Shown here piece after piece: positions 2,927 through 40,515 of a stretch of 64,000 nucleotides of DNA. The position numbers were made by a program, and so were the translations under genes. Source of the stretch: Escherichia virus TH42. Numbering within the stretch: position 1 is the stretch's first letter; every line of letters begins with the position of its first letter. The notes beneath the pieces are model-generated. The model saw nothing but the letters and a program-made list of their open reading frames with translations, searched no databases and was not told the origin of the DNA. Where the stretch lies: sequence record MT446413.1, one strand, 5' to 3'.

Positions 2927-3159
2927 TACAGACCCTTCTTGGCACGATCTTTGGCAGTTTTGCCAGTGCGGATACGATGGGAAACATTAACCAGCTCACC
3001 ACCTTCGACGATAGTTACGCTTTTGTTTTTCGCAATATCAAACACAGACTTCTCTGTTCCGCCTAGACGAATCTGACGCGGTTCACTTTGGGTCTGAGTT
3101 GACTTGGACTGGAACTGGAACGGCTGACGGATGGCATCAATTGCGCTAACTTTAGACAT
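2926..3159 (-). CDS. hypothetical protein (77 aa)
   Basis: Track ORF on block strand; start/stop abut neighbours. Confidence 0.45.
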   Translation of the reverse strand: MSKVSAIDAIRQPFQFQSKSTQTQSEPRQIRLGGTEKSVFDIAKNKSVTIVEGGELVNVSHRIRTGKTAKDRAKKGL

Positions 3160-14689: not shown

Positions 14690-15031
14690 TTACGGATTGG
14701 TGCAAGTGCCGTTACCGGATGATATTTCGTTCATCGACTCATCGAACAACGTCATACTAGACCGCATCATGTGATCAATAGTAATTTGTTTGCCTGTAGC
14801 TTCGTTAACAAGCATCGCATATTTGCTATCAACAACCTTGTTGTCGTAGTCATTCAGGTCAATCAATACTACCTTGCTGGACTTCTTGCCAGTGTCGTAA
14901 TTTTCCATAAGGTAGGTACATTGCAGGCCATCGAGATTAGCCTCATTGAATACGGCAGCATAAGACACGGAAGAAACAGCGAACAAGGCAGCACATACAG
15001 CTAATTTAATTTTCATAATCCAATCCTCCAA
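14690..15031 (-). CDS. putative secreted protein (113 aa)
   Basis: N-terminal signal-peptide-like MKIKLAVCAALFAVSSVSYAA. Confidence 0.5.
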   Translation of the reverse strand: MEDWIMKIKLAVCAALFAVSSVSYAAVFNEANLDGLQCTYLMENYDTGKKSSKVVLIDLNDYDNKVVDSKYAMLVNEATGKQITIDHMMRSSMTLFDESMNEISSGNGTCTNP

Positions 15032-15392: not shown

Positions 15393-16285
15393 TGGATAGC
15401 CTCACAATTAGCAAAGTTAATAAAGGTTGTATAAACTGCTACACCGTCATTGTAAGCAGTGGTAGCGAGTACAGTTTCACTAACATCACCATAGCTAACG
15501 AGATTAGTCACGAACTGTAATTTCTCTTTCTCAACCTTCTGATATAGAGAGTATGTAACCATGTCATGATCACTATCAGCACGCTTTAAATTAATAACCG
15601 ACTGAATGCCTGATTTCTCACTTAACGGGGTAAGAGTGACACGCACATCTTTTACGGTTACAGAGTTAAAATGCACCTTCCAGAATGAATCATTACCATC
15701 ACTGCCAACGTCACGGCAAGCCATATCAGGAGCATTCTTAAACGTGCTAACAAAGGATTGAAGACCTGTAGAAAGAGAGTCTTTTGCCTGCACATTGGTA
15801 GCGATAGCACTAACACTGATAGCTGCAACCAGCGCATAACTTGCAAGGTTGACAGACTTCATAATCTTACTTGCAATAGAAGGCTTACTATCTTTCTTCT
15901 TCTTGTTCTGAACAGCTTCAACCATAGCAGACAAGCGGGATAATACTGCGTTAACATCGCGGCAAGATTCAGGCCAATCATTCTGAGTCCAACTATCTAA
16001 ATTAGCCTGAATGTAACAGTTGATAGCATCTTGCATATCTGTAAAACCATTCTCTTTCATTGACTGCTCATCTTCACACTGTAAGGCGTTCGCAGCGGAA
16101 TCTATGATAAGACAAGCCAGAATGACAGAGTTTTTAAAGCTGGTGCGAGCTTGCTGGTTATCCATCCATTGAGAAGGCACACCAACGGAAAGACCTAACA
16201 GAGAAAGTACATCATTTGCCTGATTCAAGTATTTAATTGCTAACTTTGACATTTCATTAATCCTTTCGGTTGATGTGAACTGCAA
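15389..16285 (-). CDS. hypothetical protein (298 aa)
   Basis: Track ORF; first gene of the minus block next to the divergent region. Confidence 0.55.
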   Translation of the reverse strand: MQFTSTERINEMSKLAIKYLNQANDVLSLLGLSVGVPSQWMDNQQARTSFKNSVILACLIIDSAANALQCEDEQSMKENGFTDMQDAINCYIQANLDSWTQNDWPESCRDVNAVLSRLSAMVEAVQNKKKKDSKPSIASKIMKSVNLASYALVAAISVSAIATNVQAKDSLSTGLQSFVSTFKNAPDMACRDVGSDGNDSFWKVHFNSVTVKDVRVTLTPLSEKSGIQSVINLKRADSDHDMVTYSLYQKVEKEKLQFVTNLVSYGDVSETVLATTAYNDGVAVYTTFINFANCEAIQ

Positions 16286-16443
16286 ACTACAGTCGCAACT
16301 ATATATTAAAGGAAAAACATGTCAACCACTTATTTTCAAACTATTTCATAACTCATTGAATCTAAAAGGAATTTAATTTACTAAACTTTCTTACTCAGAG
16401 GTACAGCTTACTAACAGAATGTTACTTTATAACGCTTATAGAA

Positions 16444-17038
16444 CGGGTAGCAGATCAACGGTAACGACAGATGGGTAGAACGTGCCGCATAGGTTAGCCA
16501 ATGGGTAAGAAGCCTAACGAGGAAGGGGAAACGGGTAGGATATAATGTAAGTTAGTTACAGGTAACAGGTCAGACCATGCGGGAGTTAATTACCAGTCAA
16601 ATAATTTACTCAAACAACAAAAGAAAAAGACCAACAGCACGCTGAAAAAGAAAAAGATTAAAAGAAAGGATTAACATAATCACTTAAGTAAACAATAACC
16701 AGTCTAAACATACATACATCAATAATCCACTCATAAATAATCACATAAGTTATTACATTCAAACTATGGGGAGTGTGTGGGTTGATATAATTGCATGGTG
16801 TTACCATGTGGGTATCATTAATGTTCTTACTATTAATACCGGTTAGTTATAGTCTTCTATTAGTATGCCTGTACAGTACATCAGAGTCTAGCCTTTCATC
16901 CCTTCTCAACATGAGTAAGAGAAATACGGGTAGGAAATCACTGGTTAGATATACATGGGTAGATTCGCATTACTAGATAATGCTCATGGGTAAATAATGC
17001 ATGTCTAATATCAATGGGTAGGGTATTTATGGGTAGGT
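16444..17038 (+). repeat. iteron-like array of (A/C)(T/C)GGGTA(G/A) motifs in the divergent intergenic region
   Basis: Copies at about 16444, 16471, 16501, 16531, 16926, 16956, 16985, 17013, 17029; more ATGGGT(G/T) copies at 17408-17520; no ORF of 60 aa or more across 16290-17230 on the block strands. Confidence 0.55.
16542..16549 (+). promoter_or_regulatory. ATAATGTA motif (candidate phage promoter element)
   Basis: One of seven (T/A)(G/A)TAATGTA occurrences lying in intergenic or gene-end DNA and oriented with downstream genes. Confidence 0.2.
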
Positions 17039-17233
17039 GTGCCACTGAACGCAGATAGGGCAAGGCTTAGAGCTTAAAGGCTGATTGATTTCCTAAAGGC
17101 GATTGCATTCCCTATAACCCTTTTTTAAATGAGGACTCCCCCTTTTACCAAAACACGCTCGGAGGGGCTAGGTCCACTCGGTCAAATCAGAATTTTAAAC
17201 CCTTATATATAACTATATGCCCCAACGTTAGTT

Positions 17234-17425
17234 GTGGATTTAAGAGTGAGGAACAACTTTATGTGGAAATTGAAGATGATTATCAGGCAGATTAAATGTA
17301 ATCACGAGTACTACCCAATCCGGATATCGAGAGGTGATGAACGGTTACATGCTTATTACAAGAGTACATGGAGGTGTGCAGATTGTGGTAAGGTTAAGAA
17401 TAGTAAATGGGTGGATAGGCCTTAA
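17234..17425 (+). CDS. small zinc-ribbon-like protein (63 aa)
   Basis: C..H....C..C pattern; first plus-strand ORF after the divergent region. Confidence 0.4.
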   Translation: MDLRVRNNFMWKLKMIIRQIKCNHEYYPIRISRGDERLHAYYKSTWRCADCGKVKNSKWVDRP

Positions 17426-17547
17426 CATGACATGGCCTTTATGAAGTCCCCTTTACATCAGCGTACATGGGTTCATACATGGGTGGGCCTTTAGATGAGT
17501 AAGCCTTTATGGGTTGATCACTCTCGTTTATCAGAGGAGATATAAAA

Positions 17548-17796
17548 ATGATTCTAGACTTTTTATCAGAGCTGCTTCCTTACTTCCGCACTGAAAGATG
17601 TGCATTTGTATTTGATGAAGGGGAGGAGGTATTGAGTTGTTTGGGTAGATTAGTAGACCTAGATGACGATGAAGATTTTGATGCTACGATGGATATTAGT
17701 TCATTGGGCTGGTTGTACATGAGATGCTTTGTAACCTACAAGGCTGAGACGTTTAAAGACTATCGTTATAACACGGAAGGAGAGAATGATGAATAA
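17548..17796 (+). CDS. hypothetical acidic protein (82 aa)
   Basis: Track ORF with GGAG-type RBS upstream. Confidence 0.45.
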   Translation: MILDFLSELLPYFRTERCAFVFDEGEEVLSCLGRLVDLDDDEDFDATMDISSLGWLYMRCFVTYKAETFKDYRYNTEGENDE

Positions 17797-18442: not shown

Positions 18443-18507
18443 TAAAAGGTGTTGCCTCCTCTAGTGGGAGGCTTTTTGTTATAACGATAATGTAGAAGGA
18501 GTATAAG

Positions 18508-18975
18508 ATGTTTGGAGAAAAAGGAGAACTCACGCCTGCACAGGTAGCTGAGGTTACAGGAAGATTACCCGGTGTAACTGATGAATTGGAAAACCGTGGT
18601 ATGGAGCCAAGCACAGGGAAGTTCCAAAAGGGAAATAAGTTCGGACGACCCAAAGGTAGTAGAGGTAAGTTGACACAGCTCATGTTGGACCGAGTTGCTT
18701 CAAGTCATCTGTCCCCTGATGAAGTGTTGATTCAAATTTATGAAGATCCAAATATTCCACCTGATCTTAGATTCAAGGCTGCAAGTAAAGTTGCAGATCT
18801 GGTATATCCGAAGGCAGCTTCTGTTGAGATTAAGATTGAGGAAGAGAATGTAATTAATGAAGATTCATTGAACGCACAAATCAAGGACTTCTTGGCTGGA
18901 GCATTAGGTGCAGATGTGCTACCTCCAGAGGACTCTGAGGACGCTGAAAAGGAGGAGGAAGCGGACGAGAGTTAA
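18508..18975 (+). CDS. putative terminase small subunit (155 aa)
   Basis: Position directly upstream of large terminase, size, acidic C-terminus; call rests on synteny only. Confidence 0.4.
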   Translation: MFGEKGELTPAQVAEVTGRLPGVTDELENRGMEPSTGKFQKGNKFGRPKGSRGKLTQLMLDRVASSHLSPDEVLIQIYEDPNIPPDLRFKAASKVADLVYPKAASVEIKIEEENVINEDSLNAQIKDFLAGALGADVLPPEDSEDAEKEEEADES

Positions 18976-19041: not shown

Positions 19042-20583
19042 ATGTCATTAGATAAAGAAATATATGAAGCACTAACTGGAGACAAACTATCGGTAGAGGA
19101 GAAGAAGGCTCTGCTTGAAATGCTGAAGGATAGAGATCAATGGAGAAAGTATAATAGGATTCTTTCTTTTAAAGCATACCAGTTTCAGAAAGACTTTTAT
19201 GCAGCGGGACTGAAGCATCGCTTTAGATTCCTGTGTGCAGCTAACCGTGTTGGTAAATCTTACAGCGAGGCATACGAGTTTGCTTGTCATGTCACAGGTC
19301 GCTACCCAACTTGGTGGACAGGATATAGATTTAATCGACCCATATTGGCTTGGGCAGTAGGGATTACAGGGGACTCTACAAGAAAGGTATTGCAAAAGGA
19401 ATTGTTTGGAACACCTATCGGAAAGGATACAAACTTATTAGGGACGGGTGTTATTCCTCGTGATGCTATCGTCATTGACACGATAGAACGAGATGGAAAC
19501 AAATTACAGATCGTACAAATCAAGCACCAAAATGCTAGAGGCGAATTTGATGGGCTGAGTACGTTAGAGTTTCGTTCTACCCAACAAGGTGAACACACAT
19601 TAATGGGTGCTACAGTGGATTACATTTGGCTGGATGAAGAAGATCCTTATGAAAGTATGGCAATCTTCTCTCAGTGCGTAACACGTACACTTACTACTAA
19701 AGGTTTAGTTACGATTACAGCTACACCAGAGAACGGATTAACAGAGCTGGTGGACAAGTTTATGAAAGGTGAAGGGGACGAGAACACAGGTTCTCTATAT
19801 TTCCAAAATGCTTCTTGGTGGGATGCTCATGTGGACCTAGGTGGTCACATCTCTGACCAAGATATAAAGGATATGACAGAAGGTATTCCGGCATGGCAGC
19901 TAGAGATGCGCTCTAAAGGTATGCCTCTGTTGGGTTCAGGTTTGATTTATGATGTATCTGATGATTCAATTAAGTGTGACCCGTTTGAAATTCCTGATAC
20001 GTGGAAACGTGTTTGTGCCATTGATATTGGTATTGATCACCCGACGGCAGCTGTATGGTCAGCTTATGATGCTAACACCGATACAATCTACATTTATGAC
20101 TGCTATAAAGAAAGTGGCTTTACTCCAGTGTATCATGCACCAGCTATTAATGGTCGTGGTCAGTGGATTCCAGTCATTCTTCCTCACGATGCTGATAACA
20201 TTGAGAAGGGAAGTGGTGCTTCTGTAGCACAATTCTATAAAAATGCAGGAGTAAACGTACAAAATGATACCTTCCATAACAAGATCGGAATGGATGGTAA
20301 GAAGAACTTCTTTGTGGAGCCAGGAATTACTGATATTCGTGAGCGTATGATGTCAGGTCGATTCAAAGTCTTTAATACTACCGCATGTGCTAAGCTCTTT
20401 GAAGAGAAAGCACGTTACCATCGAAAAGTTGGTAAGATTATTAAAGAACATGATGACCTTATGGACGCAATGCGATATTCAGCTTGTTCTGTTACACACA
20501 GAGGTCGGTCTAAGCATGACGCTAGCTATGGTAGCTCGTCGCTTTATCAAGAAAATATTAACAGATGGAATCAAAGCTACTAA
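19042..20583 (+). CDS. terL: terminase large subunit
   Basis: 513 aa; Walker-A-like CAANRVGKS near N-terminus, acidic nuclease-domain residues in C-terminal half; followed by portal-sized gene. Confidence 0.85.
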   Translation: MSLDKEIYEALTGDKLSVEEKKALLEMLKDRDQWRKYNRILSFKAYQFQKDFYAAGLKHRFRFLCAANRVGKSYSEAYEFACHVTGRYPTWWTGYRFNRPILAWAVGITGDSTRKVLQKELFGTPIGKDTNLLGTGVIPRDAIVIDTIERDGNKLQIVQIKHQNARGEFDGLSTLEFRSTQQGEHTLMGATVDYIWLDEEDPYESMAIFSQCVTRTLTTKGLVTITATPENGLTELVDKFMKGEGDENTGSLYFQNASWWDAHVDLGGHISDQDIKDMTEGIPAWQLEMRSKGMPLLGSGLIYDVSDDSIKCDPFEIPDTWKRVCAIDIGIDHPTAAVWSAYDANTDTIYIYDCYKESGFTPVYHAPAINGRGQWIPVILPHDADNIEKGSGASVAQFYKNAGVNVQNDTFHNKIGMDGKKNFFVEPGITDIRERMMSGRFKVFNTTACAKLFEEKARYHRKVGKIIKEHDDLMDAMRYSACSVTHRGRSKHDASYGSSSLYQENINRWNQSY

Positions 20584-39465: not shown

Positions 39466-40515
39466 ATGTCTTTATTCGGGTCTGCTTCTAAGACTAAAAC
39501 TACAGTGGCTCCATCCTCTCAGGTTGATGCTCTGTTAAAACAGATTGTGGCTAATGCTCAGAATATGAACAGCAATGATGCTGGATTTATTTCTCAGCAA
39601 CTAGCTGGCCTTAACCCTAACCAACAAGCTGCTCTATCTAACTTAGCTAACTCTTCCACCTTGAATCAACTGAGTAATATGTACACTCCTCGGACACAAC
39701 AAGGTCTGGATCAGATGAACACTTTGGCTCAGAGATATCAAGACTTGGCTAATAGTTCAATCAGTGCTAGTGATGTTAACAAGTTCAGTTCTGGTCTAAA
39801 CAATTCTGCACTGGCTCAGGCAACAGGAAAGGCTGCATCTAACGTATCTCTTGGTAATGGTTCTGATTCAGGATCTCTTCGTAGGGCTGCTGCTCAGGGT
39901 GCTGCTTTGAATTCTGCTAATACCAACCTGTCTCGTACTATCTCTGGTAAGAACTTAGGTGTTGACGCTTTAAGATCTAACAGTTCCTTCCAGCAAGGCC
40001 TTCTGAACGCACAAACAGGGTTGGCTGGACAAAACCTTAACCTCGGCTCTCAAGGCACTCAGGCAGCTCAACAGGCTATCCAGAATCAACTTACTGCTGG
40101 TAACTTACAACAGCAGCAAGATCAGACTCAAGCTGACCTTAATTGGCAGAATGCTATTGGTAGTCAACAGTACGGATGGAATCAACTCAACAACCAATTA
40201 AATGTATTAAACTCAGTAAGCCCTATGGCTGGTTATACAATTACTAATAAAGGAGCCTCTCCTAACACATCCCAGCAAATTCTTGGTGCTGGAGTGACTG
40301 GTCTAGGTATTGCTGGTAGATTGGGTGCTTTCACTCCTAGTCAACAAACTCAGAATGCTTGGAACTCTTATAATGCTTCGGGTGGTCAATCTGGTATGGC
40401 TGGTCCTATGATCGGTGGGTCTAACCTATCCAATCAGAGTAATCAGAATAACTGGTTGTCTACAGCTGGGAGTAATATTTTGGGTGGTGTTCTAGGTGCC
40501 TTCGGGGCAAACTAA
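39466..40515 (+). CDS. Q/N/S/G-rich low-complexity virion protein (349 aa)
   Basis: Strong RBS; extreme low complexity; module position. Confidence 0.5.
   Translation: MSLFGSASKTKTTVAPSSQVDALLKQIVANAQNMNSNDAGFISQQLAGLNPNQQAALSNLANSSTLNQLSNMYTPRTQQGLDQMNTLAQRYQDLANSSISASDVNKFSSGLNNSALAQATGKAASNVSLGNGSDSGSLRRAAAQGAALNSANTNLSRTISGKNLGVDALRSNSSFQQGLLNAQTGLAGQNLNLGSQGTQAAQQAIQNQLTAGNLQQQQDQTQADLNWQNAIGSQQYGWNQLNNQLNVLNSVSPMAGYTITNKGASPNTSQQILGAGVTGLGIAGRLGAFTPSQQTQNAWNSYNASGGQSGMAGPMIGGSNLSNQSNQNNWLSTAGSNILGGVLGAFGAN

Follow-up and report, generated by a model that had tools for sequence, protein, structure and literature searches.

Co-oriented GGGTAG-type repeat arrays at the predicted terminal-repeat junction of the phiEco32-like phage TH42

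Short repeats that all point the same way at the end of a linear phage genome have a precedent in phage T7. There, the heptamer CCTAAAG is found on one strand only, with three copies in the left part of the 160-bp terminal repeat (positions 17, 41 and 60), about 12 copies to the right of the repeat at a period of 13 bp (175-355) and a few to the left of the right-hand repeat (39634-39700). To our knowledge, no function has been proven for these arrays, which have gone unexplained for 40 years. We take them to be the SRL and SRR arrays of Dunn and Studier (1983). Here we analyze a stretch of 64,000 nucleotides from Escherichia virus TH42 (sequence record MT446413.1, hereafter the window), in which a GGGTAG-type repeat forms arrays between positions 16290 and 17530. 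An initial annotation, made from the sequence of the window, had regarded this interval as a protein-binding array at a divergent promoter region or at a replication origin. Homology to the ends of related genomes points to the divergent switch region as the concatemer junction of a linear genome that has a predicted direct terminal repeat (DTR).

The evidence for the junction comes from database records. A megablast search with 16200-17600 returned 73 phage records, all of them from phiEco32-like coliphages (Kuravirus, Gordonclarkvirinae), with TH43 as the best match at 88.9% identity. Many of these records start or stop within the queried interval, which therefore spans physical genome ends, and several begin at the homologue of 16890 or finish at the homologue of 17169. 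The first 193 nt of the phiEco32 record are the same as its last 193 nt. NC-B, whose arrays are of the window type, carries an exact 250-bp repeat at both record ends with boundaries as in phiEco32. The accessible text of two papers reports an experimental mapping of the phiEco32 ends (PMC9965538; PMC4281155), and that of one of them describes the ends of YF01 as likewise experimentally determined (PMC9965538). Since 16890-17169 is homologous to the terminal repeats of phiEco32 and NC-B, the window is best read as coming from a phiEco32-like (Kuravirus) podophage, in an assembly that is circularly permuted and collapses the two DTR copies into one. A divergent promoter region does not fully account for such a locus, which is a collapsed concatemer junction with one array inside the DTR and without a match to a promoter consensus.

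The arrays are placed on both sides of the left boundary of this repeat. Array B lies within the predicted DTR, its first copy at +36 from the left boundary as set by homology, and array A lies in the unique DNA of the right genome end, 350-450 bp upstream of the predicted DTR (coordinates in Table 1). Predicted DTR lengths track insertions, with 192-193 bp and 249-250 bp in relatives and 280 bp in TH42. Because an extra array unit lengthens the DTR, the number of array copies determines how long the repeat is.

Within 16290-17530 the motif MYGGGTAR occurs exactly nine times, with every copy on the + strand. This confirms the earlier count of nine or more GGGTAG-type copies in one orientation; the spacing within arrays A and B agrees with the estimate of often about 30 bp, and the further ATGGGT(G/T) copies mentioned up to 17520 correspond to the four looser copies of cluster C. 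The repeat consensus is cA(C/T)GGGTA(G/A), with 6-8 bp common to the copies and a spacing of 28-31 or 13-15 bp, and the spacers between the copies vary within and between genomes. An unbiased scan of k-mers in the interval versus the rest of the window ranked ATGGGT, GGGTAG and TGGGTA at the top. At the density seen outside the interval, 1241 bp should hold 0.15 + strand copies of MYGGGTAR, and nine were found (Poisson P(>=9) = 8e-14). On both strands of the 64-kb window the motif has 24 matches versus 8.9 +/- 2.9 in dinucleotide shuffles, and A[CT]GGGT reaches 10.5 per kb in the interval versus 0.92 per kb elsewhere (both strands). A spread of the motif across the genome, as expected of a compositional artefact, was seen neither in the window nor in the complete 78-kb genome of TH43, where the sole AYGGGTA cluster is that of the junction (8 in 600 bp, at most 2 anywhere else).

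We compared the junction with those of 14 relatives in the Kuravirus group (Bas86, Bas87, Bas88, TH34, TH43, BS3, MLP3, phiEco32, SR02, MN05, NJ01, O18-011, Bas92 and Bas93), which together with the TH42 window make up the 15 genomes referred to below. The arrays keep their place and strand in 14 of 14 relatives, and the comparison of copy number that the initial annotation had proposed gives two to five co-oriented copies of array A in each of them. Across the 15 genomes, AYGGG was counted 132 times on the + strand versus four times on the - strand. Copies 1 and 2 of array B are found at +36 and +65 from the DTR start in every genome; later copies are at +79/+92, at +81/+93 (Bas92 and Bas93) or at +93/+108, and in TH42 at +96/+124/+139. 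At the site of the lone copy between the arrays, 11 of the 15 genomes have AYGGG on the + strand at -43 to -124 from the DTR start, and the remaining four have cTGGGG or gTGGGG, which nearly match it. In array B, the motif has 2 of 40 variable columns among close relatives, versus 13 of 71 in the spacers. This lower variation points to constraint, for which it is only modest evidence because the compared sequences are close.

The motif itself differs between lineages in an orderly way. Internal copies have changed in concert in both arrays: TH42 has ATGGGTA(G/A), the phiEco32 class ACGGGGA(A/G), and Bas92 and Bas93 ACGGG(N)A. The first copy stays ACGGGTA(G/A/T) while the internal copies shift, and the invariant core is therefore AYGGG. 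In MN05, NJ01 and O18-011 the middle copy of array A misses the longer 8-nt pattern and keeps this core. One might explain the repeats as leftovers of slippage and duplication in fast-evolving non-coding DNA that lack any sequence-specific function. Copy number and spacing do vary, as seen in the extra 31-bp unit of TH42 and the middle array A copy of MN05, NJ01 and O18-011. Such leftovers would, however, hardly be expected to show a polarity of 132 versus four copies, fixed positions of the first array B copies in every genome, a concerted change of motif in two separate arrays and an architecture that distant genera share but fill with other motifs (see below), and we consider this explanation very unlikely.

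The concerted change also bears on the possibility that the copies are sites for a host factor. Read on the opposite strand, ATGGGTA becomes TACCCAT and fits the NarL/NarP heptamer (TACYYMT) perfectly, and nine TACYYMT matches are present on the - strand of the region. Relatives with the same host, however, carry ACGGGGA or ACGGGAA at these positions, the complements of which (TCCCCGT and TTCCCGT) miss the heptamer, and there are no 7-2-7 inverted pairs because all copies are co-oriented. Moreover, chance is expected to match a 7-mer to one of many degenerate consensuses. Because the same-host relatives carry non-matching copies, the NarL match appears to be a coincidence of the ATGGGTA variant, and we regard host factor sites as extremely improbable. 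FtsK KOPS (one match only), Chi, DnaA boxes and IHF sites at the arrays were rejected by a site scan of the region. No conserved protein-coding gene covers array A or B in the relatives. The repeats are real, non-random, co-oriented, conserved and situated in non-coding DNA, and protein binding, as originally suggested, appears to be their most reasonable reading.

Among described systems, the CCTAAAG arrays of T7 are the closest analogue, with a likeness of kind and not of homology. T7 and TH42 share a linear genome with a short DTR and a one-strand motif of 7-8 bp with copies in the left part of the DTR. We also count as shared the T7 arrays in unique DNA on both flanks of the DTR and the inward-facing promoters beside them. 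In contrast, the motifs are unrelated (CCTAAAG versus AYGGGTAG) and the phages belong to different families. The main T7 array is located right of the terminal repeat, whereas the largest arrays of TH42 are inside and left of the DTR, and the period is 13 bp in T7 but mostly 28-31 bp in TH42 and 13-15 bp in the phiEco32 class. As the T7 arrays are themselves without an assigned function, the comparison names a kind and not a mechanism.

The reading we prefer, and put forward as plausible though still tentative, is that the arrays are bound by a protein specified by the phage, which would thereby mark the junction as the place for terminase to cut and for packaging. Both the binding of a protein by the arrays and their service in junction processing or packaging are what we infer from the sequence. 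Such a protein would bind cooperatively to array A before the DTR, to array B inside it and to the looser downstream copies, and would thereby build a polar nucleoprotein complex. The complex would mark the junction and position terminase for two cuts at the DTR boundaries (16889^16890 and 17169^17170, with ^ denoting the boundary), and it may also signal to an arriving packaging motor that a genome unit is about to end. Packaging is favoured because the DTR is one place that must carry or abut terminase cut sites, because array B sits between the two predicted cuts and because known terminase recognition regions consist of short repeated sites. The strict one-strand polarity fits a directional process. 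Support thus comes from the location of the arrays, their uniqueness and polarity, the constraint on them, the deep conservation of the architecture with a different motif, and the T7 precedent.

Repeated sites of this kind are known from P1 pac, where TGATCA/G hexamers flank the cut, from lambda cosB (R1-R3) and from SPP1 pacL and pacR. Like the copies in TH42, they are short, clustered around terminase cuts and close to terminase genes, and they are thought to assemble an oligomeric small-terminase complex. The R sites of cosB are mixed in orientation, whereas the sites of TH42 are strictly co-oriented; the ends of P1, lambda and SPP1 are cohesive or headful ends, whereas TH42 has a predicted short DTR, at which small-terminase binding is putative. 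Both predicted DTR boundaries of TH42 lie in a similar short sequence, (G/T)CT^AG(C/G)(C/T). It reads gtGCT^AGCC and cgGCT^AGGC in phiEco32 and tCT^AGCC and gGCT^AGGT in the window, and may represent a terminase cut-site consensus.

The terminase genes are found 1.3-1.9 kb downstream of the junction. The product of 18508-18975 is a candidate small terminase subunit and hence a candidate binder of junction elements. Among TH42, NC-B, Bas87 and phiEco32, this protein is identical at 127-130 of 140 positions in five of six pairs, and Bas87 and NC-B share 139 of 140. Positions 5, 33 and 36 are the sole separators of phiEco32 from the three phages with window-type arrays, in a set of four sequences whose genes are linked to the arrays. 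We rejected the small terminase as a proven array binder and regard it as a lead only: the profile match is weak (E = 0.008) and concerns the oligomerisation part only, and there is no convincing co-variation with the arrays. The accessible text on YF01 gives its gp3 the same small-terminase assignment (PMC9965538).

Several points weigh against a role of the arrays in marking the junction for terminase. Array A is 350 bp away from the nearest predicted cut site. We know of no demonstration that the analogous arrays of T7 are necessary for packaging. The candidate small terminase is identical at 128-130 of 140 positions among TH42, NC-B and phiEco32, with no clear co-variation with array class, and its most conserved segment (GRPKGS...) is common to genera with differing array motifs. 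This shared segment would fit recognition of the DTR core better than recognition of lineage-specific arrays. Finally, end annotations conflict among public records of close relatives. SU7 (NC_070980) has a 53-bp repeat ending at the homologue of 16942 and PAS59 (OQ921332) a 275-bp repeat ending at the homologue of 16956; in NC-B (MK310183) the annotated right repeat measures 194 bp and begins 56 bp within the homologous boundary, although the two ends share 250 identical bp. These conflicts may reflect either annotation artefacts or an additional site of preferential breakage, located between the first two copies of array B. A fixed, measured repeat of 193 bp, the left cut of which is set by distance, was suggested by the 194-bp annotation of NC-B and the nearby SU7 and PAS59 ends. 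We rejected this idea because the NC-B ends share an exact 250-bp repeat with phiEco32-type boundaries.

Recognition of the DTR core by the homologous candidate small terminase of TH42 is a weak lead. The 20-mer bound by the PaP3 small terminase (GCCGGCCCCTTTCCGCGTTA, the first 20 nt of the PaP3 record) has only CCCCTTT in common with this core.

In view of their strict one-strand polarity, the arrays might also be read by a machine moving along the DNA instead of a static binder, which we think quite unlikely. They would then act either (a) as a cosQ-like 'end is near' signal or (b) as preferred priming sites. In version (a), the arrays would slow or re-programme the packaging motor nearing the DTR from the left, leading to a cut exactly at the right boundary. 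In version (b), they would fix the last lagging-strand primer near the genome end and so leave the DTR single-stranded for concatemer annealing. Either version, if true, would also give the T7 SRL and SRR arrays a function. TGGTC is one recognition sequence of the T7 primase. It is found in the 13-bp unit of T7, CCTAAAGACCAGA (NC_001604, 280-340), on the complement, which is the strand with its 3' end at the left terminus, just inside the terminal repeat.

Distant loci in Proteus, Salmonella, Cronobacter, Aeromonas and Vibrio phages were reached through homologues of the candidate small terminase, in an extended family of roughly 130 genomes, and four of these loci were compared (Proteus P59, PKM.Lu.22.1, Aeromonas LAh_8 and Vibrio Vp_R1). 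Upstream of the small terminase homologue, each of the four has a stretch of 1.7-2.7 kb in which few or no genes are annotated. In P59 this DNA carries 12 co-oriented copies of ACTATG, and in Vp_R1 about ten of AATGATAG, likewise co-oriented, seven of which recur every 11 bp. In both phages the motif copies flank, on both sides, a C-run/T-run element that matches the Kuravirus DTR core CCCTTTTTTAAATGAGGACTCCCCCTTTT (2968-2983 of the fetched P59 piece and 3083-3092 of the fetched Vp_R1 piece, with homology judged by eye and regular expression), and the right-hand array is followed by ATGACATGGC, which in TH42 is located at 17427-17436. No clear arrays were found at the PKM.Lu.22.1 and LAh_8 loci. 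Judged from these comparisons, the junction architecture is old and its motif lineage-specific, a combination that fits a cis element co-evolving with a phage-encoded binder.

A similar composition is known from a very distant system, the herpesvirus 'a' sequence. In this terminal repeat the cleavage-packaging signals pac1 and pac2 are separated by the short-repeat arrays DR2 and DR4. It appears to resemble TH42 in having a conserved C-run/T-run element for cleavage and packaging together with short direct repeats of variable copy number, and in its processing by a homologous terminase; unlike those of TH42, its repeats are tandem and unspaced. On the right side of array B, GGGTAGGGTATTTATGGGTAGG (17016-17037) contains closely spaced G-runs on the + strand, and in the phiEco32 and Bas92/93 classes the matching place likewise carries runs of GGGG or GGG with 3-12 nt between them. 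This stretch may be prone to form a G-quadruplex, which is probably incidental because P59 and Vp_R1 are without G-runs.

Table 1. Features of the junction region and of the neighbouring terminase genes (positions in the window).
Feature	Position	Strand	Details
Sigma-70-type promoter, strong	16298-16325	-	TTGACA, 16 nt, TATAGT; 11/12 consensus matches; serves leftward early genes
Array A	16443-16538	+	Four A(C/T)GGGTA(G/A) copies at 16443, 16471, 16501 and 16531; spacing 28, 30, 30
A-rich low-GC tract	16600-16760	+	26% GC, 53% A on + strand (window 42% GC); between arrays A and B
Lone motif copy	16766-16773	+	aaactATGGGGAG / ATGGGGAG; conserved; between arrays A and B
Predicted DTR, one collapsed copy, 280 bp	16890-17169		AGCCTTTC... 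to ...GGAGGGGCT; by homology to phiEco32 ends and NC-B repeat
Array B	16926-17036	+	Five copies at 16926, 16955, 16986, 17014 and 17029; spacing 29, 31, 28, 15
Extra 31-bp unit (one motif and spacer)	16954-16984	+	TH42 only; gap in 8/8 aligned relatives (9 genomes); DTR 249 to 280 bp
TAAAGGC units, two in tandem, 19 bp each	17075-17114	-	Starts 17075 and 17094; inverted orientation of GCCTTTA family; inside DTR
Conserved DTR core	17118-17146	+	CCCTTTTTTAAATGAGGACTCCCCCTTTT; 23 bp before right boundary
Small gene, phiEco32 gp1 homologue, 54 aa	17261-17425	+	PHROG 7696, E = 2.9e-12; ribosome-binding site
Cluster C	17407-17516	+	Four looser ATGGGT(G/T) copies at 17407, 17467, 17479 and 17509
Candidate small terminase subunit	18508-18975	+	Profile of 6 homologues vs Pseudomonas phage small terminases (6w7t, 7joq), E = 0.008; DUF5681
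Large terminase subunit	19042-20583	+	Pfam Terminase_6N and Terminase_6C; PHROG 2

The low-GC tract between arrays A and B brings up the replication origin. In such an origin the repeats would be iterons, bound by an initiator (or a primase-helicase) that opens the A-rich tract. The part of this proposal that rests on direct repeats and an adjacent A-rich tract holds: there are well over the three direct repeats in a single orientation that an origin would call for (nine strict and four loose, all on the + strand), and the tract includes a conserved CGCTGAAAAAGAAAAAG at 16640-16656. The A-rich element CGCTGAAAAAGAAAA at this position is kept in all Kuravirus relatives and is tandemly duplicated in Bas92 (fetched piece, 940-1010), and P59 has a similar A-rich stretch, CTGAAAGAAAA (fetched piece, 2424), whose position relative to the junction is alike. 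Iterons of lambda ori, plasmid Rep origins and P4 ori/crr are likewise direct repeats beside an A+T-rich tract. The 8-bp repeats of P4 ori and crr form two separated clusters, a further likeness to TH42, and are bound by the P4 primase-helicase. The secondary origins of T7 (phiOL and phiOR) adjoin its terminal-repeat arrays, and the T7 annotation has the phiOL and phiOR promoters beside these arrays. A cumulative GC-skew minimum is also found at about 16 kb. This minimum, however, coincides with the switch in gene orientation and therefore gives no independent information on an origin.

Other features do not fit an origin. The conserved unit of 6-8 bp is much shorter than a typical iteron, and its spacing of 28-31 or 13-15 bp is unlike that of 17-22-bp iterons two helical turns apart. 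With array B inside the DTR, each virion genome would carry two copies of such an origin. The region has no IHF consensus, and the one DnaA-like site in it, with 1 mismatch, falls at 17262 within the gp1-like gene. No initiator-like gene of the Rep, O or alpha type was found by PHROG or Pfam among the neighbours and larger early genes, in a window that leaves out about 14 kb of the genome and with many small genes lacking an assigned function. In the accessible text of PMC9965538, the annotation of the family names only a T7-like replisome (polymerase, exonucleases, primase/helicase and ligase). We therefore consider an origin at this place unlikely.

The promoter at the left border of the non-coding junction region invites yet another reading, in which the arrays serve as operators or enhancers. 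Here a regulator of the phage (a small ribbon-helix-helix or zinc-ribbon protein, for example) would bind the repeats cooperatively and control the outward early promoters or a rightward promoter after array A. Consistent with this, the arrays are situated between divergent early units next to a strong leftward promoter (16325-16298), which is the sole promoter-like site in the scanned 16100-17700 and the same site carries a promoter annotation in SU7. In every relative, the last array A copy has a -10-like hexamer behind it (TATAAT in TH42, GATAAT or GATAGT in the others). In TH42 it overlaps TAATGTAAG (16543-16551), which lies directly 3' of array A and resembles the promoter motif of the phage sigma factor gp36, TAATGTATA, with a 7/9 match. 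Arrays of this kind serve Omega, MetJ and ParR, which bind short tandem sites cooperatively. Yet about 120 bp separate the nearest copy from the sole strong promoter; for array B the distance exceeds 550 bp, and this array lies inside the DTR without a recognisable adjoining promoter. The motif fits neither the sigma-70 nor the gp36 consensus, and the gp36-like match is not kept in the phiEco32 class. We consider an operator quite unlikely.

TAATGTAAG could drive late rightward transcription into the DTR, recalling phiOR of T7. A second sequence resembling the gp36 motif, TAATGTAGA, is found at 18488-18496, just 5' of the candidate small terminase gene. Promoters of the sigma-70 or gp36 type at each repeat were rejected: there is no + strand sigma-70-like site and no TAATGTAT in the region, and the one TAATGTAAG is that after array A.

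The junction contains a second repeat family, GCCTTTA/TAAAGGC, with 5 of its 11 copies in the window located in 17075-17509 (two inverted in the DTR and three direct in cluster C). The TAAAGGC units resemble the left DTR boundary AGCCTTTC (16890-16897), and the left boundary is 79% complementary to 17069-17082. Cluster C lies in a separate intergenic region right of the gp1-like gene with its own repeat family; its motif copies alternate with GCCTT(T)A repeats and the conserved ATGACATGGC. The DTR core corresponds to the 'highly conserved region ~130-170' of the repeat described in the accessible text of PMC9965538.

The statement that the interval has no convincing open reading frames (ORFs) holds for 16290-17260, where mechanical ORFs have no PHROG match. 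Hidden genes were rejected there, the ORFs being disrupted in relatives by indels of 31 bp and 11 bp, which are no multiples of a triplet. Positions 17261-17425 are an exception, as they form a conserved gp1 homologue that is annotated in Bas86-88 and phiEco32. The protein (MWKLKMIIRQIKCNHEYYPIRISRGDERLHAYYKSTWRCADCGKVKNSKWVDRP) has a C-x-H...C-x-x-C pattern that suggests a zinc ribbon. A counterpart of the gp1-like gene was not found at the equivalent position in P59 and Vp_R1. An Rfam search of the region for an RNA element gave no match better than E = 0.9. Among the early genes, far from the packaging module, a 113-aa protein (14690-15031, - strand) matches PHROG 13168, labelled 'terminase' (E = 2e-41), and has no Pfam match; this label looks doubtful.

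The arrays are apparently undescribed for the phiEco32-like family, although ordinary in kind as short co-oriented repeats at a terminal-repeat junction. In their accessible text, the papers on SU10, SU7, YF01 and Privateer and that of Korf et al. cover the terminal repeat and the CCCTTTTTTA internal repeat, and we found no description of GGGTAG arrays there; an earlier description in the primary phiEco32 papers (PMC2587145; PMC3275717) is possible. A full-text literature search for CCTAAAG returned nothing relevant.

How a DTR is recognized, cut and duplicated at concatemer junctions is only partly understood, even in T7. The phiEco32-like family offers a natural comparative series for this question, as the junction architecture is shared from E. 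coli phages to Proteus and Vibrio phages and the motif varies by lineage. The series varies array copy number together with DTR length (193, 250 and 280 bp), which makes the question testable. Phages of this type are present in phage-therapy collections, and the public annotations of their ends are inconsistent. When such genomes are engineered or rebooted, the junction elements must stay intact.

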